Source: a virus
Lineage: Duplodnaviria > Caudoviricetes
Virus record (IMG/VR): IMGVR_UViG_3300025167_000006
Span: 34,277-98,276 of that record
Reading direction: 5' to 3' (one strand)
Length of the DNA stretch: 64,000 nucleotides
The first letter of the stretch is position 1; every line of letters starts with the position of its first letter. The position numbers and the translations under genes were made by a program. Below the pieces are notes generated by a model, which did no database searches, had not been told where the DNA came from, and worked only from the letters and a program-made list of their open reading frames with translations. Positions 4,906 to 56,420 of this stretch are shown here, piece after piece.

Positions 4906-6348
4906 ATGGATAAGCTCAGTGGACTGAAGCTCGACATTTTCGATGATGAGGACGGCTCGATTCTTCGCGGGCTGTTCCCAGCCTACGGTGAGCTTCCAGA
5001 GCTGGTGAAGAACGCCGGAGTACTCACGGAGGAAGACCGCAACAACCTTCCTGACGATGTGTACGCTCTCGTTCTTAGGGACGGGGACGTCACCCTTCGG
5101 AAGTACGCCTGCGTCGATGCTGGTAACGTGATGCTCAACATCGCGTACCTGCTCGCCCAGTCGCACCTTCTTCCAGTTGAAGCCACCAAGGTGGCGGCTT
5201 CTAACTTGTGCGTAGCGTGCCATTGGTACGACATCGAGCCGCCAGACGAGCTCAAGAAGATGAGCACCGGCTCCACTCCTGTGATCGGAAAGCAGCAGGT
5301 GTGGAAGGACATGGACGGCACGTTGTACGGCGTCGATCATCAGGACTGGTCGTTGCACAAGACAGCGGAGATCATCGGGTCTGTGGACATGCCGCTGCAG
5401 AGCCCACCCAGCACCGTCAACGACACCAAGTCCAAGAAGCTGTCCGTCATCCCGAAGACGGCGGAGGTGGACCTGCTCGAGGAGGCGTTTGGAATCAAGG
5501 TGGCGGAGGAGCCGGACCTGGGCAAGGAGCTGCCCACGAAGGACAACCCGGAGTCCTTCCCGCAAGTGAAGGTACTGAAGCCGCACGTCGACGTGACGGG
5601 CAAGGAGCCGCCAAAGCTGGTGCACGAGAAGAACGCCAGCTACTGTTGCATGCCCTCCATCGGGAAGTATCCGATCGACACCTTCAATCAGGTGAAGGTC
5701 GCGAACGTCTACTTCCAAAGCAACCACCGGCTCATGGTGCCCGAGGACCGCAGGGAGTTTGCGGTGAACCTCTGCAAGCGTGCAGAGCAGCTGTCCTACC
5801 CACTGAGCACCGTCGTGGAGGAGTACGGGCTGCCGGGGTTCGCCAAGCGGGCACATGTGCAGAACTGCATCGACACGCGCAAGCTCCTTCTTCAGCCACA
5901 CGCGGAGCAAGGAGACACGGAGCAGCTCAAGGTGGCGAGCGCTGACCTCATGTCGCTGTACGACCAGTTGATGGGGCAGTACGGGCTGATGCACCCGGAC
6001 GTGTTCGCGGCGACCCTGGTGGAGATCGACAAGCGGGCTGGCATCAACCCCCTGTGGGACGCGGATGTGCCGGACCCGTACTACTCCACGTTCGCGAAGA
6101 CGGCCGCGGAGGCTGACCCCAAGGACGCCATCCTGCTCGGCAACGAGTACATGAACGTGCGTGACCTGCAGATCTTCGCCAGGTCCAGGCCGGACACCCT
6201 CAAGACCTTGTTCGGCTGCGAGTTCCTCGAGGAGTTCCAGAAAGATCCAACGGCCATATTTGACTCGTTGCCGGCCGACCAGAAGAAGGTCATCATGCGT
6301 CTGGTGAACAACAGTCATTCGATGGGCTTGGGAGCTTCTGCCTCGTAG
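4906..6348 (+). CDS. Hypothetical head-associated protein with multiple KxA motifs
   Basis: 480-aa ORF with RBS; KNA, KVA and KTA repeats; upstream of the portal in the same operon. Confidence 0.75.
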   Translation: MDKLSGLKLDIFDDEDGSILRGLFPAYGELPELVKNAGVLTEEDRNNLPDDVYALVLRDGDVTLRKYACVDAGNVMLNIAYLLAQSHLLPVEATKVAASNLCVACHWYDIEPPDELKKMSTGSTPVIGKQQVWKDMDGTLYGVDHQDWSLHKTAEIIGSVDMPLQSPPSTVNDTKSKKLSVIPKTAEVDLLEEAFGIKVAEEPDLGKELPTKDNPESFPQVKVLKPHVDVTGKEPPKLVHEKNASYCCMPSIGKYPIDTFNQVKVANVYFQSNHRLMVPEDRREFAVNLCKRAEQLSYPLSTVVEEYGLPGFAKRAHVQNCIDTRKLLLQPHAEQGDTEQLKVASADLMSLYDQLMGQYGLMHPDVFAATLVEIDKRAGINPLWDADVPDPYYSTFAKTAAEADPKDAILLGNEYMNVRDLQIFARSRPDTLKTLFGCEFLEEFQKDPTAIFDSLPADQKKVIMRLVNNSHSMGLGASAS

Positions 6349-6349
6349 A

Positions 6350-7195
6350 ATGCCCGACTTTCACAAGCATGAGCCGGGCGTAGACGAGGCCCAACGTATC
6401 TTCGTGGAGGAGATGCGGAGGCTTGGCATCAAGCCTGATACGAGCAAGGGGCACGTGCCGGGGCTCATAGATGAGGAGTCCGAGCAGAGCACGGCTGTTG
6501 AAGAGACCACCGAGTACGAGGACGACCGCACCAGGACAGATGTGGAGCCGGCGCCCAAGCGCCCGACCACCATCAACTTGTTCCAGCATCCAGACGCTCA
6601 CCCGTTCGTGCTGGACCTAGCGCTGCTTCGGCAGTACGGGCCTGAGTGGCTTCAGTGGGAGCCGGAGACGCTCGAGGACATCATCCTTCGGGACTTCAAG
6701 ACGAAGTCTCTCAGCGACGTGAACCTGGAGAAGCTTCAGGGGATTCGGTCGCTGCACATGCAGGACACGTTCTGGACCGACTGGCACATCTTCATGCCGG
6801 TGGCGCTCGCGCTGAACGGAGTTCCTGCGGACTTCGAAGTGATGCAGCACCTGACGGTTCCGCAGGCCATGATCGCTGTCGACATCGCGTCTCGAATCCG
6901 AGATGACGTGAAGTGGTCTGTGGAGATGGAGACCTTCCTCAGCGTTCTTCATCACCATGAGGGGTTCTTCGTTCCACAAGATCCGCTTGCTTGGGTGAAG
7001 GTCGACCACGAGGAGTACCCCGTGGATGTGGAGGAGGTATCTCGTCGGTGGCCGGCAGTGAAGGCGTCGGGCAAGCCACCAGAGCAGACGAGTGTGGAGA
7101 ACGAGCAGCTTCGTAGAATGCTGGGAGCCCTGGAACTACTACGAGAAGACAGGCGGCGGGTCACAGATCAGCTGCCGCTCATTTACAATGCCTGA
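6350..7195 (+). CDS. Hypothetical protein
   Basis: 281-aa ORF tightly coupled to its neighbours. Confidence 0.75.
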   Translation: MPDFHKHEPGVDEAQRIFVEEMRRLGIKPDTSKGHVPGLIDEESEQSTAVEETTEYEDDRTRTDVEPAPKRPTTINLFQHPDAHPFVLDLALLRQYGPEWLQWEPETLEDIILRDFKTKSLSDVNLEKLQGIRSLHMQDTFWTDWHIFMPVALALNGVPADFEVMQHLTVPQAMIAVDIASRIRDDVKWSVEMETFLSVLHHHEGFFVPQDPLAWVKVDHEEYPVDVEEVSRRWPAVKASGKPPEQTSVENEQLRRMLGALELLREDRRRVTDQLPLIYNA

Positions 7196-8393
7196 GCATG
7201 TAACCCCTGAGATGATGCTCGCGTTCGAAGACGAGCTTCTCAAGTCGGCTTCCGTGGGGGACGCCATCGGCAGGATTGGCGCGCCCATTCTTGGTCGCCT
7301 GGGTGGTCTGCTTCCTCGGATGGGTGGGCGGGCCGCGGGGCAGGAGGCGGGACAAGCCGGGTCTCAGCTGGCCGGAAGGATTGCTGGGGCTGGGGCCGGG
7401 ATGGGTCTCGGGGCTGCTGGTGGCGGCGCCATCGGGGCTGGGGTGGGCGGATACCAGGGTTACCAAGCGGAACGGGAGCAAGGCGGCGGCGGGGTGGGCG
7501 GAGCCCTCACCGGTGCACTGAAGGGTGGGGGCATGGGAGCTGGGCTGGGGGCTGCAGCCGGCGCTGGGCTTGGCGCGTCTGGTGGGAGAGTTGGCGAAGC
7601 CATCGCTGGCGTTGCGGGCGGCGCTGGCCGGGGCTTGAAGCCAGCGGCGCTGGCTCGTTTCGGGCAACGGCAGCTTCACGCCGTGACCGGATTGACTCCG
7701 GGGGGAGCTCCTCGTACGCTGGCCGGCGGGCAGGTCAATCCAGCGTACATGGAAGCCATGGAGAAGATGAAGATGCCGGGGTTGGAGTATGCCGCCACCC
7801 GGCTGCAGGCAGCACGGAGTGCCGTGAACAGCGGTGGTGGGGAGAAGGCGCTCACTGAGCTCGGCCGGGCAGCAGCTGGTAGAGCAACAGCTGAGGAGGC
7901 CGTTGGCAAGGGGATGACCAACTTGCCCGGGATGGTGCAAGCGCTTTCACAGAAGGGTGGGATGTCCGACGCGTGGCGCCTGGGGGTGAAGCCGCAGTGG
8001 ACACAGCAAGGGCGCGGGGGGAAGGCGCTACTGGCGCTTCCGGTGATTGGAGCTGCGCAGGAGGCGATGAACCCCGATGAGGTTGAAGGACGGGGCGGTC
8101 GAGCAGAGCGCGTGGGGAACTCCATCGGGATGGGGCTTGGGTACGCGTCGATGCCGTTCATGCCCATTGCTGGCGCAGAGCTCGCGTCTCGTGGGCTAGC
8201 TGGAGCTGGCGGCGGAGTCGGACGAGGCATCGATCGGTTAGTGGGGAAGATGAAGCCGAAGAACGACTTGGAGCTCGGGAACAACCCTGGAGCTCCAGTT
8301 CAAACTTCTGGTGTTGGAGAGGCGCGAGTGGAGCGTGAGTTCACAGAGCGCGCTCTTGGCAAGGCGCCAGACATGGGATTCGGTGGGCTATGA
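7188..8393 (+). CDS. Glycine-zipper/membrane-type virion protein with AFEDELLKSA leader
   Basis: Start refined to ATG 7188 (MPEHV...); GxxxG-rich hydrophobic segments. Confidence 0.7.
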   Translation: MPEHVTPEMMLAFEDELLKSASVGDAIGRIGAPILGRLGGLLPRMGGRAAGQEAGQAGSQLAGRIAGAGAGMGLGAAGGGAIGAGVGGYQGYQAEREQGGGGVGGALTGALKGGGMGAGLGAAAGAGLGASGGRVGEAIAGVAGGAGRGLKPAALARFGQRQLHAVTGLTPGGAPRTLAGGQVNPAYMEAMEKMKMPGLEYAATRLQAARSAVNSGGGEKALTELGRAAAGRATAEEAVGKGMTNLPGMVQALSQKGGMSDAWRLGVKPQWTQQGRGGKALLALPVIGAAQEAMNPDEVEGRGGRAERVGNSIGMGLGYASMPFMPIAGAELASRGLAGAGGGVGRGIDRLVGKMKPKNDLELGNNPGAPVQTSGVGEARVEREFTERALGKAPDMGFGGL

Positions 8394-10420
8394 GTTACTC
8401 AGCTGGGTTCTTCGGTGGCAGCCCCACCTCCCCAATGCGGTTCGCCAGCGGGGGCATAACCCGCGGTCGTATTCAGGGCGGCTCTACCGGTGGCGTCAAC
8501 TACCCCTCGCCGTTCTTCGACGTCGCGCACACGTACCTGCCGACCACGGTCAAGCAGCTATTCAAGTTTTGCCGGTACTTCTTCCTCACCAACTCGCTCA
8601 TCAACGCCATCATCATGAAGTTGAGCGAGTACCCCGTGACCGACGTGGAGATCGACCACGAGGACCCCGAGGTGGTGCGCAAGTGGAAGGACTACTTGCA
8701 GAACACCGCGCGTATTCGCCCGTTTCAGGTGGAGTGCGGCCTCGACTACAACTGCTACGGCAACACGCTGGTCTCCCTGAGCTTCCCGTTCCAGAAGTAC
8801 CTTACGTGCCCGCACTGCCAGTTCACCGAGCAGGCGCGCAAGATCCGAAACAACTGGCTCTACACCAGCAACGAGTTCCGACTCAGCTGTCCGAAGTGCG
8901 GGAGCACCGGTGCGGCCACCCCGCAGGACTGGTACTACAGGGACGCGAGCTCCATCCGTCCCATTCGTTGGAACGTTGAGGACGTAGAGATCAACTACAA
9001 CGAGCTCACGGGGGACTACACGCACTTCTACACCATCCCTGCCCCCATCCGTGCGGACATCACGTTGGGGAAGAAGGACGTGGTAGAAGGGATGCCTCAG
9101 ATCTTCTTGCAGGCCATTCGTCAGCAGAAGGGCGTGGTCTTCTCAAAGAACAACCTCTTCCATCTACGCCGCGCCACACTGGCTGGACAGGACCGTGGCT
9201 GGGGCATTCCCCTGATCCTGCCGGTGCTGAAGGACGCGTTCTACCTGCAGATCATGCGCAAGGCGCAGGAGAGCATTCTTCTCGAGCACATCGTTCCTCT
9301 GCGCGTCATCTTCCCACAGGCAGCGAGTGGAACGAGCGACCCGTTCACCTCAGTGAGCTTGGTCGACTGGCGTGACCAGGTCGCGCAAGAGATTGCTCGT
9401 TGGAGGCACGACACGAACTACATCCCGATCATGCCGCTGCCGCTTGGGTCGCAGAGCATTGGCGGTGATGGAAAAGCCATGCTGCTCAGCGGCGAGATGA
9501 TGCAGCTGGGTGAGCAGATCATTATGGGCATGGGTGTCCCGCGAGAGTTCCTCCAGGGAGGGCTGAGCTACGCGGGCACCAACATCTCCATGCGCATGCT
9601 CGAGAACATGTTCATCAGCTACACCAGCCGTCAGCTGCAGATGGTCAAGTGGATGGTGGACATGGTCGCCGGCTTCATGGAGTGGCCGCGGGTGAACATC
9701 CGGTTCAAGCCGTTCAAGATGGCCGACGACATGCAGCGGAAGGCGTACCTCTTCCAGCTGAACCAGGCCCAGAAGATCAGCGACACCACACTTCTTGGGG
9801 ACATCGACCTTCATCAGGAGGATGAGGACGAGATCATGGAGGCGGAGCTGGACCGCCGACTGCGCGTGCAGCAGAAGCAGCAGATAGCTCAAGCGCAGAT
9901 TCAAGGTGAGGCGCAGGTGGTGATGATGAAGCTGCAGGCGAAGGCGCAGCAAGCGCAGCTGCAGGCACAGCAGCAGCCTGCAGCTCCTGGAGAGCCCGGT
10001 GGTCCTCCTGTGGGACCTGGTGCTCCTCCAGCCGAGCAGACGGCGTTTACTGGTCCTACGCCTCCTCAACCAATGGCTCTTCCTCCTGGAGGAGCAGTCA
10101 GCGGCAGCGTCCCAGAGCACGCGCAGTCCCCGCTCAACAGCGGTCAAGACCTTGGCGTCTCCCCTGGTCAGCCGGAGAAGATGCCGGTGGACCTCATCAG
10201 ACTCGCCGAGGGGTACGCTCGGCAGATGCTCTCGCTTCCTCCAGCGCAGCAAGACCAGGCGGTGCGAGCGATTGAGCTGCAGTCCCCAGAGTTGGCGCAA
10301 CTGGTGACGGAGTACTTGGCGGCTTTGAAGCAGGAGCAGGGTGCTCCTGCAGCTACTCCCGTAGACATGCGACCGCTGCCTGAAGTTCGGCCGCCCCGGC
10401 GAGAGGCTGCGCTCGTCTGA
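8390..10420 (+). CDS. Probable portal protein (with Zn-ribbon insert and Q/P-rich tail)
   Basis: Portal-like pattern: DYNCYGN, FHLR...RGWGIPLI, IIMGMGVPREFL, W..VNIRF; CPHC/CPKC insert. Confidence 0.7.
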   Translation: MSYSAGFFGGSPTSPMRFASGGITRGRIQGGSTGGVNYPSPFFDVAHTYLPTTVKQLFKFCRYFFLTNSLINAIIMKLSEYPVTDVEIDHEDPEVVRKWKDYLQNTARIRPFQVECGLDYNCYGNTLVSLSFPFQKYLTCPHCQFTEQARKIRNNWLYTSNEFRLSCPKCGSTGAATPQDWYYRDASSIRPIRWNVEDVEINYNELTGDYTHFYTIPAPIRADITLGKKDVVEGMPQIFLQAIRQQKGVVFSKNNLFHLRRATLAGQDRGWGIPLILPVLKDAFYLQIMRKAQESILLEHIVPLRVIFPQAASGTSDPFTSVSLVDWRDQVAQEIARWRHDTNYIPIMPLPLGSQSIGGDGKAMLLSGEMMQLGEQIIMGMGVPREFLQGGLSYAGTNISMRMLENMFISYTSRQLQMVKWMVDMVAGFMEWPRVNIRFKPFKMADDMQRKAYLFQLNQAQKISDTTLLGDIDLHQEDEDEIMEAELDRRLRVQQKQQIAQAQIQGEAQVVMMKLQAKAQQAQLQAQQQPAAPGEPGGPPVGPGAPPAEQTAFTGPTPPQPMALPPGGAVSGSVPEHAQSPLNSGQDLGVSPGQPEKMPVDLIRLAEGYARQMLSLPPAQQDQAVRAIELQSPELAQLVTEYLAALKQEQGAPAATPVDMRPLPEVRPPRREAALV

Positions 10421-10432
10421 GTTGGGGCTAAA

Positions 10433-14884: not shown

Positions 14885-17800
14885 ATGGCATACCTGAACA
14901 CGGTCGACGCCTACACAGATCTGAAGGCTGGCGTATTGAAGGGGATTCATGCCAACTTTCCCCTCGAGGGGAAGAAGCAATCGATCCACTTGGAGGGGCT
15001 CACCGTACGCGACGAGAAGTTCGACCCGAACGACATCGAGGCCCAACATCAGGCCCGCATGGAGGGTAAGACGTGGGCGTCTCCCGTGTTCGGTCAGCTG
15101 GTGTTGAAGGACAACCAGACCGGGAACGTCATCGACCGTCAAAGCGTCAAGCTGGCGGACATCCCGCACATGACGAAGCGGTACAGCTACATCGTCGATG
15201 GCAAGGAGATCCAAGTCGACAACCAGTGGCAGCTGAAGCCTGGTGTGTACACGCGCCGTCGTGCCAACGGTGAGCTCGAAACGCAGTTCAACTCCCCCAA
15301 CCGCGCGTTCCACATGCACTTCGACCCGGAGTCGAAGATCTTCCACATGGAACGCGGTAAGTCGGGGAAGATTCCGGTGTACCCATTGATGAAGGCAATG
15401 GGCGTCGATGACGACACGCTGGAGAAGAGCTGGGGGAAAGAGGTTCTGAAGGTAAACCAAGGGCAGCGTGCGGTCAGCACAGCCCTAGAGCGCTTCTTCA
15501 AGGCAGACAGGAAGCGCGCCCCCACTGACAAGAAGGAAGCTCTGGACTACTTCCATCAGTCGATGCGGGAGACAACGTTCGACCCGGAGTCAACGGAGAT
15601 CACGCTCGGTCATCCGCACAAGAGCTTGACGGGAGACGTGTTCACGGCCGTCACCAAGAAGATGCTCGACGTGCAGAACGGGAGCGTCCCAGAAGATGAA
15701 CGCGATGCTCTGGTGTTCAAGAGTCTGAGAACCACTGCCGACTTCGCGCATGACAAGCTCACGGCGTGGAACACGCGTAAGCAGATACTTCCCAAGGTGA
15801 ATCGAAAGATCAACACTGCCAGGAACATCAGGGAGGTCGTCAAGGGGGCGTTGTTCAACGGTGCCGTAAAGTCCACGTTCACCGCTAACGCGTTGGCTCG
15901 CACGGCAGACCAGGTGAACCCGTTGGAGATGATGGAGGGCGCCTTCCAGACAACAGTCATGGGGCCCGGTGGTATTCAGAGCGAGCGCAGCGTAAGCGAA
16001 GAGGCGAAGCTCATCAGCGAGAGCCACTTTGGCTTTCTGGACCCGATACACACCCCGGAGGGGAACAAGACGGGTGTGACGCTCCATCTCCCGCTGGGAG
16101 TTGTGAAGGAAGGGAACAAGCCGACCATTCCCGTGTTCAACATGCGGACGGGTCAGGCGGAACGCATCGATCCCGTGACGTTCTACAAGTCCAAGGTCGC
16201 ACTCCCCGACCAAGTGAAGTGGCAAGGAGGGAAGCCTGTAGCGCTATCCAAGGAGGTTCAGCTTTCAGACCGTGGGAACGCGGTCATAGCTGGCGGCCTG
16301 CATACCGCAGACTACGTGATGCGCTCGCCCAGTCAGTTGTTCAGCACGGCATCAAACCTCATTCCGTGGCTTGGCAGCAACTCCGGCAACCGTGCTAGCT
16401 ATGCCGACACGCAGATGAAGCAGGCCATCTCCTTGAAGCACAGGGAGGCACCGTTGGTTCAGACGGCTACTGGAACCAAGGCTGCTGGGCTTGATACGTT
16501 CGAGGGGTTCTTGGGGTCGCAGTCTGCGCATGTAGCGCCTGTCGGTGGTACGGTCACGACCGTCAACAAGAACCACATCTTGGTGCGCGGTGATGACGGC
16601 AAAGAGCGCAAGGTATCCCTCTACAACAACTTCCCCTTGAACGACCCAAAGGCTGTTCTGGACTCCACGGCCGTGGTGAAGGTCGGGCAGAAGGTCACCC
16701 GTGGGCAGGTTGTTGCGGACAACAACTTCACGCGGGACGGGAAGTTGGCTCTGGGTACCAACCTCCGGGTTGGTTACTTGCCGTACAAAGGACAGAACTT
16801 TGAGGACGGCGTGGTCATCAGCCGCAGCGCTGCGGAGAAGATGACCTCAGTGCACATGCACAAGCCAGAGATTCAGCTTGCCGACACTACCATCACGGAC
16901 GCTCGTCGGTTCGCGATTCATCATCCAGAGGCGTTCACGAGAGATCAGCTAGCCAAAGTTGGTGAGAACGGCATCGTGCAGGTGGGTCAAAAGGTGAAGC
17001 CTGGAGACCCCTTAGTGTTGGCGACGAAGCCGTACGACTTGAAAGGGCGGGACAGCATCGCGGCTGTGCGCAGGAGCTTGTCGACGCAGCAGTCCAACTC
17101 CAGCCTAACGTGGAAGAGCGACTTCCCTGGTGAGGTGGTGGGGGTGCATCGGGACAAGAGTGGAAACGTCCGGGTGCACGTGCGCACCGAAGAGCCGATG
17201 CAGATTGGCGACAAGCTCACAGGCCGCGCCGGCAACAAGGGGATCGTCACCAACATCCTGGAAGACCACGAGATGCCGCGCACGCAGAGCGGGCATCTTG
17301 AGGTGCTGCTCAACCCCGCTGGCATTCCTGGTCGTATGAACATGGGCCAGGTGTTCGAGACGGTGGCCTCAAAGATCGCCCGCAAGACAGGGCAGCCCTA
17401 CGTGGTTCAGAACTTCGAGCATGGGGTCGACCAGCTGGCGAGGATAAAGGCGGACCTTGCCAAGCACGGGATCCCAGACCAGGAAGAGGTTCATGACCCC
17501 ATCTCCGGAAGGAGCTTGGGGAAGGCGCTGGTTGGTGAGCAGCACCTGTTCAAGCTGAACTTTCAGGTGGACAAGAAGATCAGCGCCAGGGCTGGCAACG
17601 TGCTTGAGGGTAACGAGCCGGAGTTCTACGACAACAACCTCATCCCTGCTGGAGGTGGAAAGACGGGTGCGCAGAGCCTTGGCAACCTCGCGCTTTACTC
17701 GATGCTCTCGCACGGGGCCACGGCGAACATCAGGGAGATGCAGACGCTGAAGAGTGAGGGCCCTGACGTCCGCTATGGGGGGAAGAAGTGGGACAGTCAG

Positions 17801-20800
17801 CACCAGCAGGTGTGGAACGCCATTCAGACCGGCGAGAGAATCCCGGCCCCCAAGAAGACCTTCGCGTTCCAGAAGTTCGAGGACATGCTCCGAGCTTCAG
17901 GCGTCGACGTGGTCAAGAAGGGGCACCGTCTGCAGCTGACGCCGCTGACGAACTCGCAGGTGCTGGCGATGAGCTCGGGCGAGGTAAAAGATCCCACGTC
18001 TCTCACGTACTCGAAGTTGGACAAGTCGGGGGAACCGGCTCCGATTCCCGGTGGGTTGTTCGATCCCAAACTGACGGGCGGACATGGCGGGCGCAAGTGG
18101 ACGCACATGAAGCTCGCAGAGCCCATGCCGAACCCGGTGTTCGAGGGGGCCATCCAGAAGGTGCTTGGGATGGGCACGAAGAACTACTCGGCAATCGTCA
18201 ATGGAGAGCGGGCCGTAAAGGACGGCAAGCTGGTGGAGCTGGATACACCGGGGTCGATGGCGGGTGGAGCAGCCATCGCGCACATGCTCAGCCAGATCGA
18301 TACGAAGACGGAGCTAGAGAAGGCGAAGAAGGAGCTGGCAGCAGTCCGTATCCCAGACCAGCTAGCGCACCGTGACAGCACCACTAAGCTGGACCAGGCG
18401 TACAAGCGCGTGAAGTACCTGCAGGCGCTGGACAACGCAGGCATCACGGCAAAGGACGCCTACACGTTGCACAACTTGCCCATCATTCCTCCGGCGATGC
18501 GTCCAGCGTCTGTACTCCCTGATGGGTCCATCAAGTGGGACGACATCAACGGGATGTACAAGCGTCTTGGCGAGAACAACGTCGAGATGAAGCACGAGAA
18601 CTTCATGACGTACTTGCCAGATTCTAGGAAGGCGGAGTTCCGCGCTGAGATGTACGATGGCCTGAAGGCCCTGATGGGCGTTGGCACGTCGAAGTCGGAG
18701 GATGAGAACGAGTCGCGCGGGTTGTTCCAGCAGATAGCGGGGGCCAATCCCAAGCGCGGCTACTTCCAAGGGACGCTGCTGAAGCGCCGTCAGGACATGA
18801 CGATGCGCGGAACTATCACGCCCGATGCCGGGATGGGCCTAGACAACGTAGGCATTCCGCAGGACAAGGCGCTGACTCTTTTCAGGCCCTTCGTGACCAG
18901 GAAGCTCGTGGAGATGGGGTCCGCACCTTCTCCACTGGACGCGCACAAGATGCTGTCGCAGAAGGGCGTTAAGGACAGGTCGGTGTACCGCGCACTGGAT
19001 CTGGTGATGGAGGAGCGCCCGGTGCTTCTAAAGAGAGACCCGGCGCTGCACAAGCACAGCATTCAGGCGTTCAAGGCACACCGCGTTCCTGGAAAGTCGA
19101 TTATGATCCACCCGCTAGTAACGGGCGGCTTTGGGGCGGACTTCGATGGTGACTCGTGCCTCGGGTCTATTCTGTGCTATACCGTAGAAATGGCGCACGC
19201 TGGTTCTGTGGCGTCCTTCAAGGTTATCGACTTGGCTGACTTTCCACGGGTGGAGGAGTCACGTCGAGAGTTGCCTAACGGCGTGGTTGAGTACGATGTA
19301 CCAGCGCAAGTTTACGTTCCAGGTTATCGCAACGGGAGCGTTAGGTTGTTCGAAGCGACCGGGTATTCGGTGCATCAAGATTGTGAAGAATGGATTGTAA
19401 CAACCCGTGGGGGACGAGAGATTCGCTGCTCTTCTGATCATTCATTGGCGCTGCTGAACCCAAACAGCTTTGCTGTGGAACAGACACCTCCCAGGGGCAG
19501 CGTTGGGCTTTGTATGCCCATCATGCGGGACCTGAAGGATGGGTTGTGGGGTAGCGCCGCGGGCAACGCGTCCGGGAGTGCGTTTGCCAATGATATGGTG
19601 GAAGTCTTTGACTTCAACTTTAACAACGGGTGGTTTTTGGGTGTGTTGTGTGGGGACGGGTGGGTGTCTGGATCTAGTGAGCATCGTCAAGTGTCTCTGT
19701 CCCACGGATCTTTGAATCGCAACGTTGTTCAATGCTGGGAGAGTCTTGCGCGCTATCTGGGCGGTACCAACACGGTGACTAAGACAGAGATGCCTCATGA
19801 GTTTGAGGGTGTGCAGTGCCTGTCAGCCCGAGCAACCATTTCGTGCACAGCTTTTGGCAACTGGCTTCTTCCAATGATTGGGCATGGGGCCCGCGGTAAA
19901 CATCTTCCAGAGCGCTTTTTGGAGACGCCAGTTGAGTTCCGTCGGGGTATGTTTATCGGACTTATCGATACGGATGGTACCGCCTGCTGGAGTGCTGGTA
20001 GCGAAAAGAAGAAGCCGCAGTTTTCGCTGTCCTTCACGACCACAAGCGAGCGCTTGGCACATGAAGCGGTTCTTCTCGGGTTGTCGCTGGGAGTAGGTTC
20101 TGGGTCGTCGGAGTACGTAAACCGAGAGCGTCCGGTTTGGATCGTGACGTTTTCAATACCGATGGTGAAGGCAGCACTCCATTGGCTGAAGCTGGTGGAT
20201 ACAGGCAAGCAGCAGGCACTGGATAGATTGGCTGAAGAAGCAGTCGGTGCCTCATCTACAGACGTGGTTCCGCTAGTACCATCCGTGGTGATGGCTCTTC
20301 TCAAAGAGCTGCGCAAAATGGGAGCGGCTCGTAAGGGTAAAAATAGGAACAACCAAGCATTTACTTGGTACACCTCCGTTAAAGCTACTTCTGGGTACAT
20401 GCTTCGAGATACAGCTAGGCGGATACTTGACGCCATCAAAGATCTTCCAGGAGAGCTATCCCCATGGGCACAGGTCGTTGCTAACGAGTCTGTGGGCTGG
20501 GACATCGTGGAGTCAGCGTCTCCTACTGGGGAAGTTCGTACAATGTATGATCTTACGGTCCCAGAATCGTTGACGTTCACGATGATGAACGGAGCAGTCG
20601 TGTGGGACACCATGGCGGTGTACGTCCCGATGTCTTCAGAGGCTGTTCGTGAAGCGCACGGCATGCTGCCCTCGAACAACCTGTACAACGAGGGCTCCGG
20701 GAAGGTGGAGTTCAGGCCCACGAATGAGGCAGCGCTTGGCCTCTACAAGATGTCCAGGGTGACCGGCACCAGCAGCCAGAAGTTCAAGGACCCCACTGAG

Positions 20801-24683: not shown

Positions 24684-24687
24684 AACC

Positions 24688-39431: not shown

Positions 39432-39803
39432 ATGAACCTGGATATGGAGAAGGCTGCAGCGGTGCTCGTTGACGCTGGGCATGCGCTGCAAAAGGTTGCT
39501 TCGGAGCGTGATGGGCTGGCTGTGAAGCTGGCGCAGGCCGAGGCGAACAACGCGCTACTTCTGAAGCGCATGGAGGCGGAGAAGATCGCCGCTGCCATGC
39601 ACGACAAGGGCGTCAACCTGGACACCAGCTTCGACAAGCTGGCCGCGGCGCTCGAGCAGGAGGACGACTCGCGGCTCGAGATCATCAAGGCCGCGCTGCA
39701 GATGCAACCGGGCGACATGATGAATGGCGCTCGGCTGTCCGACGGCATGGCATCGCAGTCCGGCTCAGACTTCGAGAACTTCATTCTGGGAACGGTCGGC
39801 TAA
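39432..39803 (+). CDS. Small coiled-coil scaffold-like protein
   Basis: 123 aa; five KxA motifs; two genes upstream of the capsid gene. Confidence 0.7.
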   Translation: MNLDMEKAAAVLVDAGHALQKVASERDGLAVKLAQAEANNALLLKRMEAEKIAAAMHDKGVNLDTSFDKLAAALEQEDDSRLEIIKAALQMQPGDMMNGARLSDGMASQSGSDFENFILGTVG

Positions 39804-42781: not shown

Positions 42782-43228
42782 ATGTTGAAGATTCTACGGT
42801 TTGGCGACACGGACGCTGCAGAGCACACCCTCAACGGTGGCATCGTCAGCGGCAAGCAGATGAGCGGTAAGCTGCTGGGGCTGCATGGTCTCACACTCAT
42901 CTTCGGCACGCCTGCTGGGACGGTGACGTTCAACGACCCAACGGGGGAGGGGTTGTCCGTCGGGGACATCAAAGATCAGATCGTGGCTGTGCACGCAACG
43001 CTCACGGTGCAGTTCTACGAAGGGTCCTTGCGCATCCGGGACACGGACGTTTCGTCCGCGGTGGTGCTGGACAAGGATGGCACGGCCAATGCGTACTTTG
43101 GGTTCAGCAAGGCCAAGGACATCTCGGGGACCGTATACAACCCACCGGATGGGGCTGCCCCACGCCTGATCGACTTCAGTATCAGCCCCCGGATGGACGG
43201 CTTCGTTGCTGTGGTGGAGGTGACATGA
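42782..43228 (+). CDS. Virion protein carrying a sheath-insert-like module
   Basis: GLHGLTLIF...TVTFNDP...IKDQI resembles the sheath repeat GLNGLDLVV...TITFSDP...VVGQI. Confidence 0.6.
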   Translation: MLKILRFGDTDAAEHTLNGGIVSGKQMSGKLLGLHGLTLIFGTPAGTVTFNDPTGEGLSVGDIKDQIVAVHATLTVQFYEGSLRIRDTDVSSAVVLDKDGTANAYFGFSKAKDISGTVYNPPDGAAPRLIDFSISPRMDGFVAVVEVT

Positions 43229-44649
43229 GCTCACTAGAGAAGTTGCTGCTCGAGGCTCGTACCATCCCGCTGTCGGAGGCGAGTGAGTACTTCCTCGAGC
43301 TTCGTGAGTTTCCGAAGACGGCCGCAAAGGAGACGCCCACGGACGACGAGCTCAAGGAGACTGGTCGTCAGCGCGGGGTTTCTTCTACGGCAGCCGAACA
43401 TGAGCGGGACAAGTCTCGCCGTGGTGAGCGCACCGGAAAGGCTCTTGGGGCAATCGGTGGGCTGGCCGCTGGCGGAGCTCTTGGGCGCAGTCTCGTTGGG
43501 GGCCCGATGGGTGCATTGGGGGGAGCTGCCATTGGGGGGCTGGCTGGAAGAAGCCTTGGTGGGGAGCTGGGGACGGAGGTCGACATTGCTCGGTCTGCTT
43601 CTGCTGCATCTCCGGTGGATGCCGTACTGAAGACGGCGGCTGCCAGGATGGCTGCTTGGGTGAAGTCGGCTGCTGATGAACCAGCCTTGGCGCAGGGAGG
43701 TCCAGAGGCCCAGATGACGGCTCCGACGGACAAGCCAGAGCTCATGCCCGCGAACTACCTGCAGGCTGAGGCGATGGGGCAGGAGGCGCAGAACTCCAAT
43801 GAGGCCGACTACTTCAAGAGCAAGGCGCGGGATGCGGAGCAAGCTGTTCAGCAGGCTCAAGATCAAGCGCTTCAGATGTCGGCTGGCACGGAGCAGCTTC
43901 AAGCGGAGGCTGATAGCACTGCTCAGCGCATTCAGGCGTCTTTGCAGGAGGCGATGAAGGCCCGGGATGAGGCGCTGCAGCAGACGGAGATTGCCGCCAA
44001 TCTGCGGATGGCGATGCAGAAGCAGCGGCAGATGATGATGGAGGTGGCTTCGCAGGACCCGGCGGCGGACGCTGCGGGGGCTCTGGGTGGCTCTCTCGGC
44101 GGGGCTTTGCCCCCGGCACCGCCTGCTGAACCGCCGATGGAAGGGCAGGCGATGGCGCCGGAGGGCGGTGCTCCTGGGGCTGGGAAAGCCCCGGACCAGA
44201 AGACGGCTCCTGGGGCTTCGCCGCCGGCGGGGGCAAAAGACATGAACGCCCCGGCCGGGGGGCCTCCTGGACCACCCACCTCGACGGCGCACCCGGCCGG
44301 GGGCGTTCCTCCCATGGGGGAGAAGACGAGCTCGGTGAAGACCGCGTTCTACGGAGCCCTTGGCGGGGCAGCCCTCGGGGCAGCGGTTGGCGCTGGCTCG
44401 GTGGCTGTCGACCGCGGGAAGAACGTTGGTGAGATGCAGGAGCGTCTCAGCGAGCTGCAGCGAACAACTGATGGCAGCTACGCGCAGGCGGCGGCATCAG
44501 CTCGTCTGCAGAAGCAGATCGTGGACACGCAGATGGCGCAGCAGTTTCCCACGCAGGTAGCTGCTCGCCGTGCAGCAGGGACAGCTCTCAACTTTGGTCT
44601 GCGCGGTGCAGGCATCGAGGGGAGCATTCGTCGACTTGGGAGAGCGTGA
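43225..44649 (+). CDS. KxA-punctuated glycine-zipper/coiled-coil virion protein
   Basis: 474 aa; two glycine zippers, Q/A coiled coil, Pro-rich linker. Confidence 0.75.
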   Translation: MSSLEKLLLEARTIPLSEASEYFLELREFPKTAAKETPTDDELKETGRQRGVSSTAAEHERDKSRRGERTGKALGAIGGLAAGGALGRSLVGGPMGALGGAAIGGLAGRSLGGELGTEVDIARSASAASPVDAVLKTAAARMAAWVKSAADEPALAQGGPEAQMTAPTDKPELMPANYLQAEAMGQEAQNSNEADYFKSKARDAEQAVQQAQDQALQMSAGTEQLQAEADSTAQRIQASLQEAMKARDEALQQTEIAANLRMAMQKQRQMMMEVASQDPAADAAGALGGSLGGALPPAPPAEPPMEGQAMAPEGGAPGAGKAPDQKTAPGASPPAGAKDMNAPAGGPPGPPTSTAHPAGGVPPMGEKTSSVKTAFYGALGGAALGAAVGAGSVAVDRGKNVGEMQERLSELQRTTDGSYAQAAASARLQKQIVDTQMAQQFPTQVAARRAAGTALNFGLRGAGIEGSIRRLGRA

Positions 44650-45152
44650 TGTTGGACACCTTCCTGGACGTGTTGGCCGAGCGTGAGAAGACCGCCTCTT
44701 CAGTCGATGAGCTGACTGCGGTGATGAAGGACCTTCCGCTGGAGGAGATTCAGAAGATCGCCTCCGGGAAGATCAAGCTGTCGTACTACGACGGGGACCC
44801 GAAGTGGCTGACCCAGTTCGAGGGAACCCCGTTGTACAACCAGGCGGTTGCCCTGGAGAAGGAGCTGCTTCAAGCGGAGGCTGCAGAGCTGGAGAAGCGA
44901 ATCACGTCCGAGCGGGACGACACCTACGACCAGAAGGACAAGATCCGGCTAAAGAAGAAGCTGTTGGAGCTTCAGCTGGCCATGTCTCACGGAGGAAAGG
45001 CGGCAGAGGAGCCGGTGAAGGAACCCGGGGAGGATCACACAGAAGAATCCGCGGGTGAAATGAAGGAGCCTCCCACCACTGCAGAGCCTGTGAGCGAGAA
45101 GGCTGCCTCCGCGATGAGGAAGGCGGCTGCAGAGATCCTCCCAAAAGCCTGA
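44646..45152 (+). CDS. KxA-containing protein ending at a -1 slippery site
   Basis: 168 aa; EKTAS, QKIAS; ends C CCA AAA GCC TGA. Confidence 0.75.
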   Translation: MMLDTFLDVLAEREKTASSVDELTAVMKDLPLEEIQKIASGKIKLSYYDGDPKWLTQFEGTPLYNQAVALEKELLQAEAAELEKRITSERDDTYDQKDKIRLKKKLLELQLAMSHGGKAAEEPVKEPGEDHTEESAGEMKEPPTTAEPVSEKAASAMRKAAAEILPKA

Positions 45153-52138: not shown

Positions 52139-52169
52139 GTGTGATGCGCAGTGAGTTGACTCGCTATCG

Positions 52170-52430
52170 ATGCCAGGAGCCGCCATGATCACTAGCGCAA
52201 TGATGTTCGCGATGCGTGACGAGATGATGAAGGCCGCCGGCCTTCCACCCGAGGTGTTGGCCCGCCTTCATGGCGTGGCCGACACGCTCGTGCGGTCGGA
52301 GAGGGCGGGCAAGCCGGCGGCTTCAGCGGCAAAGAAGCTGATCCAGCCCAAGAGTTTGGGTGGCATGGCACACCCGGCGATTGGCGGTGGAAAGATGTCG
52401 CCTGACGCAGTGGACTGGGGCGGTTTCTAA
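52170..52430 (+). CDS. Small protein with AMRDEMMKAA leader
   Basis: 86 aa (or from the second Met after AGGAG). Confidence 0.6.
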   Translation: MPGAAMITSAMMFAMRDEMMKAAGLPPEVLARLHGVADTLVRSERAGKPAASAAKKLIQPKSLGGMAHPAIGGGKMSPDAVDWGGF

Positions 52431-52520
52431 TGATTTCACAATACTCGCCAGGCCCAGCTGCCTCTGGGACTGAGGATGCCCGGGCATCTGGTAGACTACA
52501 AGGTAGAAGGATACCGGTAA

Positions 52521-53144
52521 GTGCGTAACGAGGATGGAACGACGCGAGACATTACGGGGGAGACCTTTGGTCTTCTTACGGCGGTCTCACGCGCGCCGAA
52601 CGATAAGTTCGGCACCATCTATTGGAACTGCACGTGCCAATGCGGGGAGACGAAGCTAGTACGCGCTAATCAGCTGCGGCACGGTAAGTTCTTCACGTGT
52701 GGTAAACCCCTGTGTCGCTTTTGGGAGAAGGTATACATCCCAGGGTCCAGCGATGGTTGTTGGGAATGGACTGGAGCTCTGCACGATGAGGGATACGGTA
52801 TTCTCAAGGTGCTGGGCAAGACCGTCAGAGCGCACGTGTTCTCCTACGAGTTGATCAACGGCTTGGTGCCGGACAACTTGTTCGTACTTCACACCTGTGA
52901 CAACCGCAAGTGTGTAAGAGTGGACCACTTATTTCTGGGCACGCATGCGGACAACATGGCCGACATGGCCGGTAAGGGTAGAGCTGCTACTACCGGTAAA
53001 GTGTTTCTGCTGCCCTCAGAGAAGCAGAGGATGAAGGAACTGTATCAGCTAGGCGGGTTGTCTCACCCCGACCTCGCCGCGCAGTTTCACGTTAGCCTCA
53101 TTACAGTGAGACGGACGCTCCGAAGGGCGTCTAGCCGGAGGTAA
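52521..53144 (+). CDS. Free-standing HNH homing endonuclease
   Basis: WNCTCQCG N-terminal domain; CWEWTG, RAHVFSY, VLHTCDNRKCVRVDHLFLGTHADN; C-terminal HTH. Confidence 0.88.
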   Translation: MRNEDGTTRDITGETFGLLTAVSRAPNDKFGTIYWNCTCQCGETKLVRANQLRHGKFFTCGKPLCRFWEKVYIPGSSDGCWEWTGALHDEGYGILKVLGKTVRAHVFSYELINGLVPDNLFVLHTCDNRKCVRVDHLFLGTHADNMADMAGKGRAATTGKVFLLPSEKQRMKELYQLGGLSHPDLAAQFHVSLITVRRTLRRASSRR

Positions 53145-53149
53145 GGAAC

Positions 53150-53962
53150 ATTAGCGGCAACTTCAGTGACTGGGCACCGTACACCAACTACGTTCAGTCG
53201 GGGATGGTGGACGGGCAGTACGTCAACGCCGGCTTCTTGATGATTGCCGCGGGTCCTCCGCGCATCGCGAACATCGGCGGTGCCACCTTCTTCGGGCAGG
53301 CGCTGAGCGGCACGGGTGAGAACGCGAATCAGATCGTGCTCCCCATCGGGGTGCTGCAGAACTTCAACGTGACGCACACCCGGCAGTTCAGCCGCATCTT
53401 CGAGCTGGGCTCGGAGCGCAGCTACTTCATCTCGGGTCGTACTGTGGGGCAGCTCAGCCTGGGGCGGGTCTACTACCACGGTGCGAGCTTGCTGCGCATC
53501 CTGTACGCCTACTACAACGACACGATCAGCCCCACCATCGTCGCTCCGATGTGGCCGAACCTCGGCTCGTCACCGCAGAACATGGTGAACCAGCACGACG
53601 TGATCATCCCGCCGGGGTACGAGAACATCTTCTACAACCTGGCGTCCGACCTCTTCGCGCAGCCCATAGGGCTCTTGATGTACATCCGGGACATCAACCT
53701 CGATGCTCTCGGCGCCGGGTACTTCGAAGCGTGCTACCTGCCGAACCACGCCATGGCGACGGACGCACAGGGCGTGCTCCTGCAGGAGAACGTCAGCGTG
53801 CAGTTCGAGCGGATGGTGCCGGTGTCCATCAGCCAGCTGACCCTGATCAGTTCCAACTCCGCCAATGCCGGTGGGGCCAACCAGAGCAGCGCGTTCTTGG
53901 GCATCCCAGAAGCTCCAGCTCACTCCACTCGCGCGGTTCGTGGCGCCAACCTACCGGGGTAA
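53150..53962 (+). CDS. Probable tail tube protein (likely ATT start)
   Basis: Follows the sheath; IGVLQNFNV...RIFELGS..YFISG, ENVSVQFER; GGAGGT SD 7 nt before ATT 53150. Confidence 0.7.
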   Translation: MSGNFSDWAPYTNYVQSGMVDGQYVNAGFLMIAAGPPRIANIGGATFFGQALSGTGENANQIVLPIGVLQNFNVTHTRQFSRIFELGSERSYFISGRTVGQLSLGRVYYHGASLLRILYAYYNDTISPTIVAPMWPNLGSSPQNMVNQHDVIIPPGYENIFYNLASDLFAQPIGLLMYIRDINLDALGAGYFEACYLPNHAMATDAQGVLLQENVSVQFERMVPVSISQLTLISSNSANAGGANQSSAFLGIPEAPAHSTRAVRGANLPG

Positions 53963-53965
53963 TGA

Positions 53966-54355: not shown

Positions 54356-54798
54356 CGCTGGCAGCGGTCTCGGACGTGAAGTCGGTCACCGAGACTGCTG
54401 TTTACGTGATCGTGCGGGATAGCGCCTTCGGGGCGCTACTTGTCGTGGCCATAGCCGCGCTCTATCTACTGGTCCAGCAGCTGCTGAAGGTCCAGGACAA
54501 GCGCGTTACGGACCTGCAGAAACTGAACGAGCGGGTAGAAGCCCGTGAGGACAGTACGCGGCGCTTGGTTGAGAAGATGACCGAGACGTTCCAGCAGGTG
54601 AAGTCTTCGCTTGATGCGTTGAAGGATACGGGCGAAGACCAAGTGGAGGCGCTGTCCAGGAACACGCAGGCGGTGAGCAAAGTGGAGAGCACTTTGGACT
54701 CAGTGATTCGTGAGCATGCACGAACCGCTGCGCACGCCGCGGGGTACAGAAGGACCTCTTCTACAACGACGTCTGCGCCACCAAAGGGAGGTGCTTGA
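54352..54798 (+). CDS. Membrane protein with coiled coil (holin-like candidate)
   Basis: ATGA overlap; TM segment FGALLVVAIAALYLLV. Confidence 0.55.
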   Translation: MTLAAVSDVKSVTETAVYVIVRDSAFGALLVVAIAALYLLVQQLLKVQDKRVTDLQKLNERVEAREDSTRRLVEKMTETFQQVKSSLDALKDTGEDQVEALSRNTQAVSKVESTLDSVIREHARTAAHAAGYRRTSSTTTSAPPKGGA

Positions 54799-55007
54799 TG
54801 TCTCTAGTCGCGTTGTACAGGCGGCTCATGGGTACAGACGCGGCAACGACAGCTGAAGAAGCGCGCCTGCATCGCAATCTCAGCGGGATGGAAACGAACA
54901 ACCACGACCTAGACAGGTTGGGGGCAGAGTTGGACGACATCCTTTACGAGGTGGACCGGCATAGTATACAGATGTCCCTGCCACCGGAGGGTGTGAACCA
55001 TGGTTGA
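54798..55007 (+). CDS. Small hypothetical protein
   Basis: GGAGG RBS; TGATG overlap. Confidence 0.6.
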   Translation: MSLVALYRRLMGTDAATTAEEARLHRNLSGMETNNHDLDRLGAELDDILYEVDRHSIQMSLPPEGVNHG

Positions 55008-55599
55008 TGTAGCGGGCGCAGAGAGCGAGCAGACCATTCGAAGGCGTGACCTTCGAGACCTGGGTGAAGCCTTCAGGAAGGCGTTGACCCCGTTGTCTGG
55101 GGTGCTCGACCACATGAAGGGGCTCAACGCGCGCTGGGACCGTTCGGGCGCCCAGATGCGCTCGATCTTGCGTCTGCAGTTCTTGCTGCTGGCCCTCAGC
55201 GTAGTCAGCTTGCTTGCTGTGGGATGGGCGATTCATGTGATGGACCGTACGCGCGTCCAGATGGACGCCAGCGCGCTCAAGATGCATCAGCTGGACATCG
55301 GGTTGGCCAGTACTCTGTCCGAGCTGCGGGAGCTGAAGAGCACTGCCAGCAACACGGAAGCGGCGGTCAAGCAGGTGAAGCAGGCGGAAGAAGACCGACC
55401 GAAGTTGGAGCTCGTGGCTGAGACCGACCCGGTGAAGGCGGTATCTGCGCCGATGAAGCTACGCGTGACGAACGCCGCGCCCAGCGCTGCTCCATCCTCC
55501 AGCGGGGACTCCGTGTTCAGCCGTGTGCCGCTGCTGCCCTCGCCTGCGGCAGACGCACCGGCCATGGCCGAGATTCCAATCCCCCGCAGGGTGCCATGA
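55000..55599 (+). CDS. Single-pass membrane coiled-coil protein
   Basis: TM segment FLLLALSVVSLLAVGWAI; GGAGG RBS. Confidence 0.65.
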   Translation: MVDVAGAESEQTIRRRDLRDLGEAFRKALTPLSGVLDHMKGLNARWDRSGAQMRSILRLQFLLLALSVVSLLAVGWAIHVMDRTRVQMDASALKMHQLDIGLASTLSELRELKSTASNTEAAVKQVKQAEEDRPKLELVAETDPVKAVSAPMKLRVTNAAPSAAPSSSGDSVFSRVPLLPSPAADAPAMAEIPIPRRVP

Positions 55600-56420
55600 C
55601 AAGTGGTCCTGACCCGCGGCTGCTGGAAGCCTACGGGACGAACGAGCTCTACTTCGAGAACCTGGAGAAGAGAGCCGACACGCAGTTCTCCATCCCGATG
55701 GCGGCAGCCACCGCTGGTGAGTGGGGTAGGCTGCTGACAGCCAAGGGGACGCAGGAGAAGGTCGACCGGCAGCGCCTCCACGCGCAGGCGCTGAACCTTC
55801 AGTTCCGTGAGCTCGAGGCGGCACGGATGCAGGAGACCAACGAGCGCTTTGGCGGCCCCGGCACGGTGCGGGCCCGCTACCAGCGTCTGATGATGTCCCA
55901 GCCCTACATGGTCCATCCCATGATGGCCGGGGCAGCCCTTCAGGGGATTGAGGGGGAGCAGGTGGTCACGGCCTCGGCTCGCCGGTGTGGGGCCGCGATG
56001 GCCAAACTCGCCTATCACAACCTACCTGAGCTGCCGGAGGTTCAACCAGACGCCGGTGGGGCGATGCCCCGCAACATGGCTGCCCCGCATCTTCAAGCGG
56101 CCAGGCAGCACGTCGGGGAGGCAGTGGGGCAGACGGCTGTGGGTGCTGGGCACGCTTTGGGGTCGTCGTCGGGGCGCATCGGGGCCCGGATGGGAGACAC
56201 AGCGGTTGCCTTGGGAGGGCGTCTTCAGGCGCGCGCTCGACAGCCTGGGGTTCTGCAGCGGGCTGCTGGCATTCCAGGCCGTCTGTTTGGCGGCTTTGGG
56301 CGCGGTGTTGAGGACTTCATGCAGGGCGAGGTGCAGCCCACGGTTCGTTGGGGGGCGGGCATTCACCCGGCAGCGAACGTCAACGAGTACGGGATTGCCA
56401 TTGGTGGGGGCGGCTACTAG
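55596..56420 (+). CDS. Gly/Ala-rich protein with KxA motifs
   Basis: 274 aa; LEKRA, MAKLA. Confidence 0.7.
   Translation: MTSGPDPRLLEAYGTNELYFENLEKRADTQFSIPMAAATAGEWGRLLTAKGTQEKVDRQRLHAQALNLQFRELEAARMQETNERFGGPGTVRARYQRLMMSQPYMVHPMMAGAALQGIEGEQVVTASARRCGAAMAKLAYHNLPELPEVQPDAGGAMPRNMAAPHLQAARQHVGEAVGQTAVGAGHALGSSSGRIGARMGDTAVALGGRLQARARQPGVLQRAAGIPGRLFGGFGRGVEDFMQGEVQPTVRWGAGIHPAANVNEYGIAIGGGGY

Follow-up and report, generated by a model that had tools for sequence, protein, structure and literature searches.

The window analysed here is the final 64 kb of a 98,276-bp viral contig (G000; IMG/VR record IMGVR_UViG_3300025167_000006, Duplodnaviria, Caudoviricetes), and the element in question is a tripeptide motif, K-x-A, that recurs in the open reading frames (ORFs) of its head region. 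Complete relatives span 185 to 195 kb and have direct terminal repeats, so the contig represents about half a genome; 250 IMG/VR relatives of the window capsid protein were found, at 70 to 86% identity. The genes of the head module run in the order terminase (28581), protease (32732), scaffold-like protein (36450), and capsid protein (40425), an order that is identical in Salmonella phage Arash and Vibrio phage D69. ORFs are named here by their first nucleotide in the window, and their coordinates are collected in Table 1.

Table 1. Features of the window, with K-x-A counts given as observed versus expected; an arrow marks the predicted scissile bond.
Feature	Position	Strand	Evidence or context
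480-aa protein, 14 K-x-A	4906-6348	+	14 vs 2.8, z 7.2; about 2 kb upstream of the portal gene
Gly-rich protein, leader MPEHVTPEMMLAFEDELLKSA↓S, K19-A21 at nt 7242-7250	7188-8393	+	Translation and N-terminal site list; sequence only
712-aa protein, 7 K-x-A	24688-26826	+	7 vs 2.2, z 3.4; downstream of the RNA polymerase and spike genes
All-helical 358-aa protein, 11 K-x-A	31172-32248	+	11 vs 2.3, z 6.3; between the terminase and protease genes
Prohead protease polyprotein, 1,223 aa	32732-36403	+	Intein Pfam matches; fold by model; boundaries from sequence and intein-less homologues
Protease N-extein, ends in DVSMG	32732-33262	+	Within the protease ORF
LAGLIDADG intein, 392 aa	33263-34438	+	Cys178 to His568-Asn569, +1 Ser570; Pfam Intein_splicing, LAGLIDADG_3
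Protease C-extein	34439-36403	+	Rest of the protease domain, two inserted domains, conserved C-terminal domain
K31-R-A33, predicted N-terminal self-processing site, GEFEKRA↓SPHLL	32822-32830	+	Within the protease ORF
K706-A-A708, VGMDKAA↓SASDE, directly behind the protease domain	34847-34855	+	Flank-only score 7.3, highest in the window
KEA↓SASS module-border site	35312-35320	+	Within the protease ORF
KEA↓SADD module-border site	35666-35674	+	Within the protease ORF
KVA↓STGE module-border site	36254-36262	+	Within the protease ORF
Scaffold-like Lys/Ala-rich protein, 12 K-x-A	36450-37361	+	12 vs 7.0, z 2.3; between the protease and capsid genes
680-aa Ala/Gly-rich protein, 14 K-x-A	37374-39416	+	14 vs 6.3, z 3.6
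123-aa helical protein, 6 K-x-A	39432-39803	+	6 vs 1.4, z 4.5
HK97-fold major capsid protein	40425-41546	+	phrog_2522; NF042927 below its cut-off
Two ORFs with leaders ending in K-x-A	43225-44649 and 44646-45152	+	REFPKTA↓A at residue 31; AEREKTA↓S at residue 15
ORF with similar leader, MRDEMMKAA↓G	52170-52430		N-terminal site list, from the letters alone
Helicase with intein	1069-3885	-	Gene identified in the window
Portal protein	8390-10420	+	30% identity, E 1e-83, to Arash gp204, annotated as portal; non-enriched negative control
Fused beta-beta' RNA polymerase with intein	14885-22795	+	Pfam; non-enriched negative control of similar Lys/Ala content
Large terminase	28581-30392		Gene identified in the window
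Tail sheath	48335-52138		Gene identified in the window

Distribution of K-x-A in the window

Among roughly 1,590 gapped residue pairs of the form X(0-3)Y, K.A (dots standing for any residue) ranks second in the whole contig, behind C..C, with 192 occurrences against 127.5 expected (z = 5.7). The scan was conditioned on the composition of each protein and covered all pairs to avoid testing only the motif singled out by the first-pass annotation, a reading of the sequence made by a model. When all ORFs outside the candidate set are scanned, K.A drops to 371st of 1,588 pairs (91 observed versus 84.1 expected), and the excess is confined to about ten ORFs around the portal, protease, and capsid genes. 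Expectations for individual ORFs were drawn from 1,000 within-protein shuffles, so that they are corrected for each protein's own composition, and by this measure six ORFs reach z values of 2.3 to 7.2. The first-pass claim that K-x-A is non-random in head-region ORFs thus holds after composition correction, and every example it quoted is present in the translations. Most of the ORFs that it listed are enriched, the individually weak ones being 43225 (z = 0.6) and 55596 (z = 1.9); counts in these two and in ORF 45224 are non-significant.

Shuffle tests detected no K-x-A excess in the RNA polymerase (15 versus 15.2), terminase (1 versus 2.0), portal (2 versus 2.0), or sheath (1 versus 2.3), bearing out the impression that the motif is scarcer in the last three, and none was present in the replication genes of the contig. 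As a positive control, the same scan was applied to the head proteins gp67, gp68, gp21, gp22, gp23, and gp24 of phage T4, whose prohead protease, gp21, has the motif (L/I)-x-E. There, I.E and L.E ranked 1st and 4th of 872 pairs, indicating that the scan recovers a real protease motif; K.A ranked 49th. One excess in the window was rejected as a repeat artefact: that of ORF 59229-59897 (+), a 222-aa protein whose histone-H1-like AKKAAKKA low-complexity tract supplies the count through its AKKA run. The pairs A...A and K...E are also mildly enriched across the contig.

The residues flanking K-x-A are biased in the enriched ORFs only, with Glu favoured at -3, F/I/L/M at -2, and V/E at -1, and with Ser directly behind the Ala in 22 cases against 5.9 expected. 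Window sites show a 4.2-fold enrichment of V before the K and a 3.8-fold enrichment of S after the A. As read from these sequences, the extended motif is acidic-x-(L/M/F/I)-(V/E/D)-K-(V/L/T/I)-A, then S, A, G, or E. More restricted forms of the motif are enriched as well: K-(T/L/I/V/E/Q/S)-A in ORF 36450 (9 versus 2.4, z = 4.6), which has an alternative start at the ATG at 36495 and whose product presumably acts as a scaffold protein, and K-x-A-(S/A) in ORF 44646 (4 versus 0.4) and in the protease ORF (6 versus 1.2).

In ORFs 4906, 7188, 31172, 32732, 36450, 39432, 40425, 43225, 44646, 52170, and 55596, the first K-x-A lies at residues 7 to 39, and in most of the leader-bearing ORFs this first site has acidic and hydrophobic residues just upstream. 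Short N-terminal leaders that appear to end in the motif are thus found on otherwise unrelated proteins, in the manner of the T4 internal proteins. The first site is kept in homologues of ORF 31172, of ORF 43225 (residue 31, conservation 0.87), of the capsid protein, and of the protease, and partly in those of ORFs 39432 (0.51) and 44646 (0.24).

The capsid protein contains two K-x-A (1.4 expected), one of which, K23-L-A25 (nt 40491-40499), is the N-terminal copy pointed out in the first pass and is embedded in G-K-E-K-(I/L/M/V)-A at residues 20 to 25. Across 61 homologues, its K is invariant (1.00) and its A nearly so (0.98), with the middle residue conserved at 0.36, and residues 1 to 22 average 0.50 versus 0.73 for residues 26 to 70. 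From this pattern, a 25-residue capsid propeptide and a mature N terminus at Q26 are predicted.

The intein-interrupted head protease

The first-pass annotation had placed a "spliced" protease with a VSMG motif in this module, and both parts of that description stand: the ORF is interrupted by an intein, and the protease has a T4 gp21/herpesvirus fold. The intein lies two residues behind the catalytic-type Ser, with the junction sequence PDVSMG/C178…H-N569/S570-KVPYD (slashes mark the intein borders), whereas 35 insert-free homologues read DVSMG-(S/T)KVP. It has the features of a class 1 intein, namely, Cys1, a C-terminal His-Asn, a +1 Ser, an endonuclease domain, and intein-free homologues. 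The protease family has at least two intein insertion points close to the active site, one behind DVSMG (used in the window, L073, and L026) and one behind VPYDT (L039:4058-6922). LAGLIDADG inteins also interrupt the helicase (1069-3885, -) and the RNA polymerase (14885-22795, +), making three, with that of the head protease (32732-36403, +), within one 64-kb window.

An AlphaFold2 (AF2) model of an intein-less homologue of the protease (predicted local distance difference test [pLDDT], 81; predicted template modeling score, 0.80) was aligned structurally with VIA-align. T4 gp21 was the best match (5jbl_B; Z = 8.6; root mean square deviation, 2.7; 131 of 164 residues), and the next ranks were herpesvirus proteases (Z = 5 to 6.6). 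According to this model, the N-terminal domain of the ORF, a divergent serine protease, adopts the assemblin fold of T4 gp21 and the herpesviruses. Residues H117/H118 and S174, the latter within P-D-V-S-M-G, are invariant among 35 protease homologues and, judging by the sequences, parallel H85 and P-G-V-S140 of T4 gp21, with a spacing of 55 versus 56 residues; we take H85 and S140 to be the catalytic residues of gp21. At the sequence level, the protease part had no match in Pfam or PHROGs at an E value of 0.1 or less, none in NCBIfam or among PDB sequences in an alignment-profile search, and its alignment profile produced no alignment with gp21.

Outside the intein, K-x-A sites of the protease ORF start at residues 31, 683, 706, 720, 861, 979, 994, 999, and 1175. 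The first of these is the predicted N-terminal self-processing site: residues 1 to 28 are disordered in the homologue model, and there follows K30-x-A32 (homologue numbering), in which, across 35 homologues, the K is invariant and the A is at least 90% conserved. The site at K706 is kept in homologues as (M/L/F)-x-K-x-A↓S. The protease domain itself closes with a conserved GAD-(K/R)-T-A-K (window residues ~668 to 674), which reads K-T-A in most family members and R-T-A in the window; this K-T-A lies directly behind the last strand of the protease fold and may be structural or a further self-processing site.

Homologues of the protease differ in the number of domains inserted behind the K706 site. 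Insert-free homologues read (M/L)-x-K-A-A↓S-A-E-D and continue directly into the conserved C-terminal domain, L073 has one extra domain between K-V-A↓S-A and K-E-A↓S-A-D, and the window ORF has two, parted by D-T-K-E-A↓S-A-S-S. In the C-terminal alignment, the inserts start and stop at K-x-A↓S, so that the borders of these indels fall at the Ala-Ser junction, the sole sequence evidence for where a cut would be. The first-pass proposal that many ORFs are polyproteins is supported by such borders in the protease ORF and has no such support in the others. Its further suggestion, that sites mark composition boundaries, was not supported, and neither was a link with glycine-zipper boundaries; the cases number three and are unconserved in homologues. 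The inserted domains have no Pfam identity, and searches of the K-x-A-rich ORFs, the intein-less protease homologue, and the inserted domains against Pfam, PHROGs, and NCBIfam returned nothing usable. The labels ADP-ribosyltransferase-like and ParB-like accordingly lack profile support.

The association of the motif with this protease extends across the family. A profile search of 1.84 billion representatives returned 2,731 protease-family clusters, 951 of them at E values of 1e-30 or less, and many members are broken by one to three inserts. In a survey of the top 150 matches, 105 representatives (at most 50% mutual identity) had a recognisable LVNA anchor, and K-x-A occurs upstream of this anchor and the fold in 103 of the 105, at a fixed distance of 25 to 28 residues in 74. 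The two exceptions read K-L-G and K-T-S, suggesting a small residue at the Ala position. K.A far outranks every other pair (786 versus 314.8) in the C-terminal extensions of 95 representatives, where S is enriched 3.3-fold behind the A and M/F/L are overrepresented at -2. In some representatives (e.g., P0019, 1,691 aa), the match is split into three or four stretches, which implies several inserts.

Conservation and recurrence of the motif in relatives

Alignments with homologues at 30 to 45% identity show that the K and A of K-x-A sites are often conserved at 0.9 to 1.0, versus 0.07 to 0.4 for the middle residue and 0.3 to 0.4 for the flanks, and 25 sites have both K and A in at least 70% of homologues. 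Pooled over seven families, conservation averages 0.62 for the K of K-x-A versus 0.39 for other lysines (P = 3e-6) and 0.69 versus 0.46 for the A (P = 2e-7); the middle residue scores 0.37 on average, less than the mean of 0.46 over all positions. K.A heads the list of pairs in the families of ORFs 36450, 37374 (62 homologues), and 39432. Four sites of ORF 36450 (residues 39, 48, 134, and 269) have K and A at 0.88 to 1.0 and x at 0.07 to 0.23 among 40 homologues, and at residue 51 of ORF 39432 the values are 0.98 for K and 1.00 for A (47 homologues). A single-sequence search with ORF 4906 found one relative only; in the orthologues then gathered by genome search (34 to 54% identity), K and A are retained at most sites and x is variable.

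ORF 31172 keeps K and A jointly in at least 75% of 44 homologues at seven sites. Its AF2 model (pLDDT, 82) consists of helices throughout, with residues 108 to 151 disordered, and places some of its K-x-A sites inside helices and some in the disordered stretch. A Foldseek comparison of this model with BFVD gave no meaningful structural match.

The enrichment recurs in an independent genome, the complete 186,443-bp relative G003, which was assembled from ten stretches. Over its roughly 200 ORFs, K.A is 5th of ~1,590 pairs, and six ORFs reach a z of at least 3, these being the orthologues of 4906 (13 versus 2.7), 24688 (16 versus 3.2, z = 7.3), 31172 (11 versus 2.6), 39432, 22795, and 42782. The orthologues of 22795 (spike) and 42782 were set aside as motif carriers; their sites lack the flank pattern, are unshared, and are probably due to chance. 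The window and G003 have shared sites but also lineage-specific sites of the same type (e.g., KTAS and KLAS), which argues for selection on the motif itself and not on local structure.

More distant phages have the motif as well. Arash and D69 encode homologues of the protease (30 to 32% identity; E = 1e-24 and 1e-27) and capsid proteins that are 26 to 28% identical to that of the window, and K.A is the top pair in the head modules of both: 46 versus 21.1 in Arash gp218-226 (z = 5.4; L.K is second) and 51 versus 22.4 in D69 ORFs 0266-0275 (z = 6.0; K..S is second). Their capsid sites, at residues 27 to 29, are LVKEA↓G in Arash and LTKEA↓G in D69, both within QGL(V/T)KEA↓GAAMS; the D69 protease begins with GLEKSA↓AANE, and D69 ORF 0271 has ten (L/M)-x-K-x-A-(S/A) sites. 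A position weight matrix (PWM) trained solely on the residues flanking the sites of Arash and D69 also separates the K-x-A sites of the window, with a median of -1.3 for candidate ORFs versus -6.4 for other ORFs (P = 4e-10), and 34 of 96 candidate sites exceed the 95th percentile of the controls, versus 5 of 86 others; this is the flank-only score of Table 1.

Arash gp220-gp226 were detected in virion preparations (Arash paper), a study that, in its text and supplement, has no peptide lists and makes no mention of a protease, processing, or cleavage. In the head region of phage G, K.A is not among the top pairs, no protein but gp19 (z = 3.9) stands out, and the N terminus of the capsid protein is free of K-x-A sites; with so weak a signal, phage G is not counted as support. 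The 2025 phage G paper contains no processing data, and a literature search for a K-x-A prohead-protease motif returned nothing relevant.

The RNA polymerase of the window is a single 2,636-aa ORF, whereas its Arash counterpart is split between the genes gp206 and gp216 (L099, L097), whose products are among the most abundant proteins of virion preparations (Arash paper), suggesting that the polymerase is packaged in the virion. Between the sheath gene and the downstream tail genes, the 252-aa ORF 53204-53962 (+), which may encode the tail tube protein, has no lysine at all, and its G003 orthologue (71% identical) is likewise without K-x-A. A free-standing HNH endonuclease gene (52521-53144) also lies among the tail genes.

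A candidate cleavage code for head maturation

K-x-A is a non-random, conserved, lineage-wide motif. Its standing as a conserved recognition motif is well supported, and it probably also serves as a cleavage code: in our judgment, the sites are quite likely those at which the phage's own prohead protease cuts, with the consensus Φ-x-K-x-A↓(S/A/G). The analyses show the enrichment, the conservation, the fold of the protease, and the joint occurrence of its family with the motif; by analogy with T4, phiKZ/SPN3US, and the herpesviruses, we infer cleavage at the motif, its position, and the fate of the products. The cut would probably fall after the Ala, with K at P3, A at P1, and S/A/G at P1'. 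A protease precursor would be built into the procapsid and would release itself at K-x-A sites at its N terminus and behind its catalytic domain; for the window ORF, the predicted fragment boundaries are residues 33/34, 708/709, 863/864, and 981/982. It would then trim the 25-residue propeptide off the capsid protein, strip leaders of about 6 to 40 residues from about ten proteins, and cut the helical scaffold-like proteins 31172, 36450, 37374, and 39432 at multiple sites. T4- or SPN3US-like maturation with a different code is the most economical reading.

T4 gp21 (PDB 5jbl) is the closest structural counterpart of the window-family protease, and the likeness extends to the Ser and His motifs at equal spacing and to a gene that adjoins the scaffold and capsid genes. 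The predicted capsid propeptide, the short leaders ending in the motif, and the multi-site scaffold-like proteins would likewise have T4 parallels. Unlike gp21, with which it shares no detectable sequence similarity, the window protease has a long C-terminal extension with inserted domains as well as an active-site intein, and the predicted P3 Lys and P1 Ala stand in place of Leu/Ile and Glu in T4. To our knowledge, the rule of Glu at P1 holds for every characterised T4-type phage protease.

The herpesvirus assemblins (S21), which cut at (V/L/I)-x-A↓S, belong to the same fold class and resemble the window protease in the predicted Ala at P1 and Ser at P1' and in the fusion of the protease to a scaffold-like C-terminal extension, from which self-release is predicted here. 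In contrast to the hydrophobic P3 of herpesviruses, the P3-equivalent residue relative to the predicted scissile bond is an invariant Lys, and the sites are far more numerous and spread over many proteins.

The prohead proteases phiKZ gp175 and SPN3US gp245 cut after (S/A/G)-x-E; for SPN3US gp245 the site is A-x-E, with V favoured at P4 and S favoured at P1' (PMC10052503). The P3-x-P1 layout, the Val before the motif, and the Ser after it are common to gp245 and the window. Processing of many head proteins, a self-cutting protease, and multi-site propeptides are also features of phiKZ and SPN3US that are predicted here from sequence; however, P1 is Glu and P3 is small in those phages, versus the Ala and Lys predicted here. 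Neither the capsid nor the RNA polymerase organisation of the window phage is related to that of phiKZ-like phages.

Several points weigh against a cleavage code. For the window phage and its relatives alike, cleavage is a prediction that neither proteomics nor biochemistry has backed; processing goes unmentioned in the Arash virion paper, whose coverage table does not settle the question. The predicted scissile bond is set by analogy only, the protease lacks a sequence-level match to any curated protease family, and many K-x-A sites are inside confidently predicted helices, where access by a protease is not obvious. Finally, ORFs 4906 and 24688, both distant from the capsid gene, encode no more than candidate head proteins.

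K-x-A could instead serve docking or capsid targeting: the scaffold, the protease, or the inside of the shell would bind the motif and thereby bring proteins into the procapsid, and the cut would not fall there. Its position at the end of short N-terminal leaders on unrelated proteins and the many internal sites in stable helices would suit such a role, and the conservation pattern demonstrates that a common factor recognises the motif but does not demonstrate a cut. We consider docking unlikely, as it leaves unexplained the sites at the borders of the inserted domains of the protease ORF, the fixed site ahead of the protease fold, the presence of 10 or more copies per scaffold-like protein, and P4 and P1' preferences common to a proven cleavage motif. 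Moreover, targeting and cleavage signals coincide in T4, and docking therefore overlaps with cleavage as an explanation.

It is quite improbable that K-x-A is a structural signature of helical or coiled-coil scaffolds, for example a pattern on a helix surface, that arises convergently in Lys/Ala/Glu-rich proteins and has no common reader. Several carriers are indeed all-helical and Lys/Ala-rich, and A...A and K...E are in mild excess. However, each count allows for the composition of the protein concerned, an RNA polymerase of similar Lys/Ala content has no excess, and the helical scaffold set of T4 shows no excess of K.A. Disordered segments and the N termini of the capsid protein and protease contain sites as well, and the flank preferences transfer between lineages at ~30% identity.

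That something other than the prohead protease reads the motif, be it a host protease or an enzyme that modifies lysine, is less probable still. Nothing favours this directly, although an invariant Lys would suit a modification site; against it, the motif co-occurs with the protease family across unrelated hosts (Salmonella, Vibrio, and uncultured) and saturates the protease's own extensions family-wide, and no candidate modifying enzyme was identified, Pfam being blank on the inserted domains. Chance or a compositional artefact, to which the individually non-significant ORFs and the AKKA run of ORF 59229-59897 might have pointed, is refuted by the rank of 2 among ~1,590 pairs, the replication in an independent genome, the excess conservation, and the cross-lineage transfer.

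Returning to cleavage by the phage's own protease, we are slightly inclined toward a broader version, in which the enzymes form a large, unannotated gp21-like branch (~2,700 clusters at 50% identity) with herpesvirus-like Ala-P1 specificity and the motif is also a modular junction, at which entire domains enter the protease polyprotein and leaders are joined to unrelated proteins; it would then be a load-and-cut code for the contents of the head. Confirmation of cleavage would establish a third specificity class of phage head proteases, defined by Ala at P1 and Lys at P3, and would link phage and herpesvirus assemblins by substrate as well as by fold. The prediction is directly testable in Arash and D69, which are cultured and carry both the protease and the motif. 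If confirmed, it would allow mature head-protein termini, scaffolds, and candidate head-internal or ejected proteins to be predicted from sequence only, reaching thousands of uncultured 100- to 200-kb phages that have no annotated protease, and a code for head contents would, if true, be readable straight from the sequences of uncultured phages.

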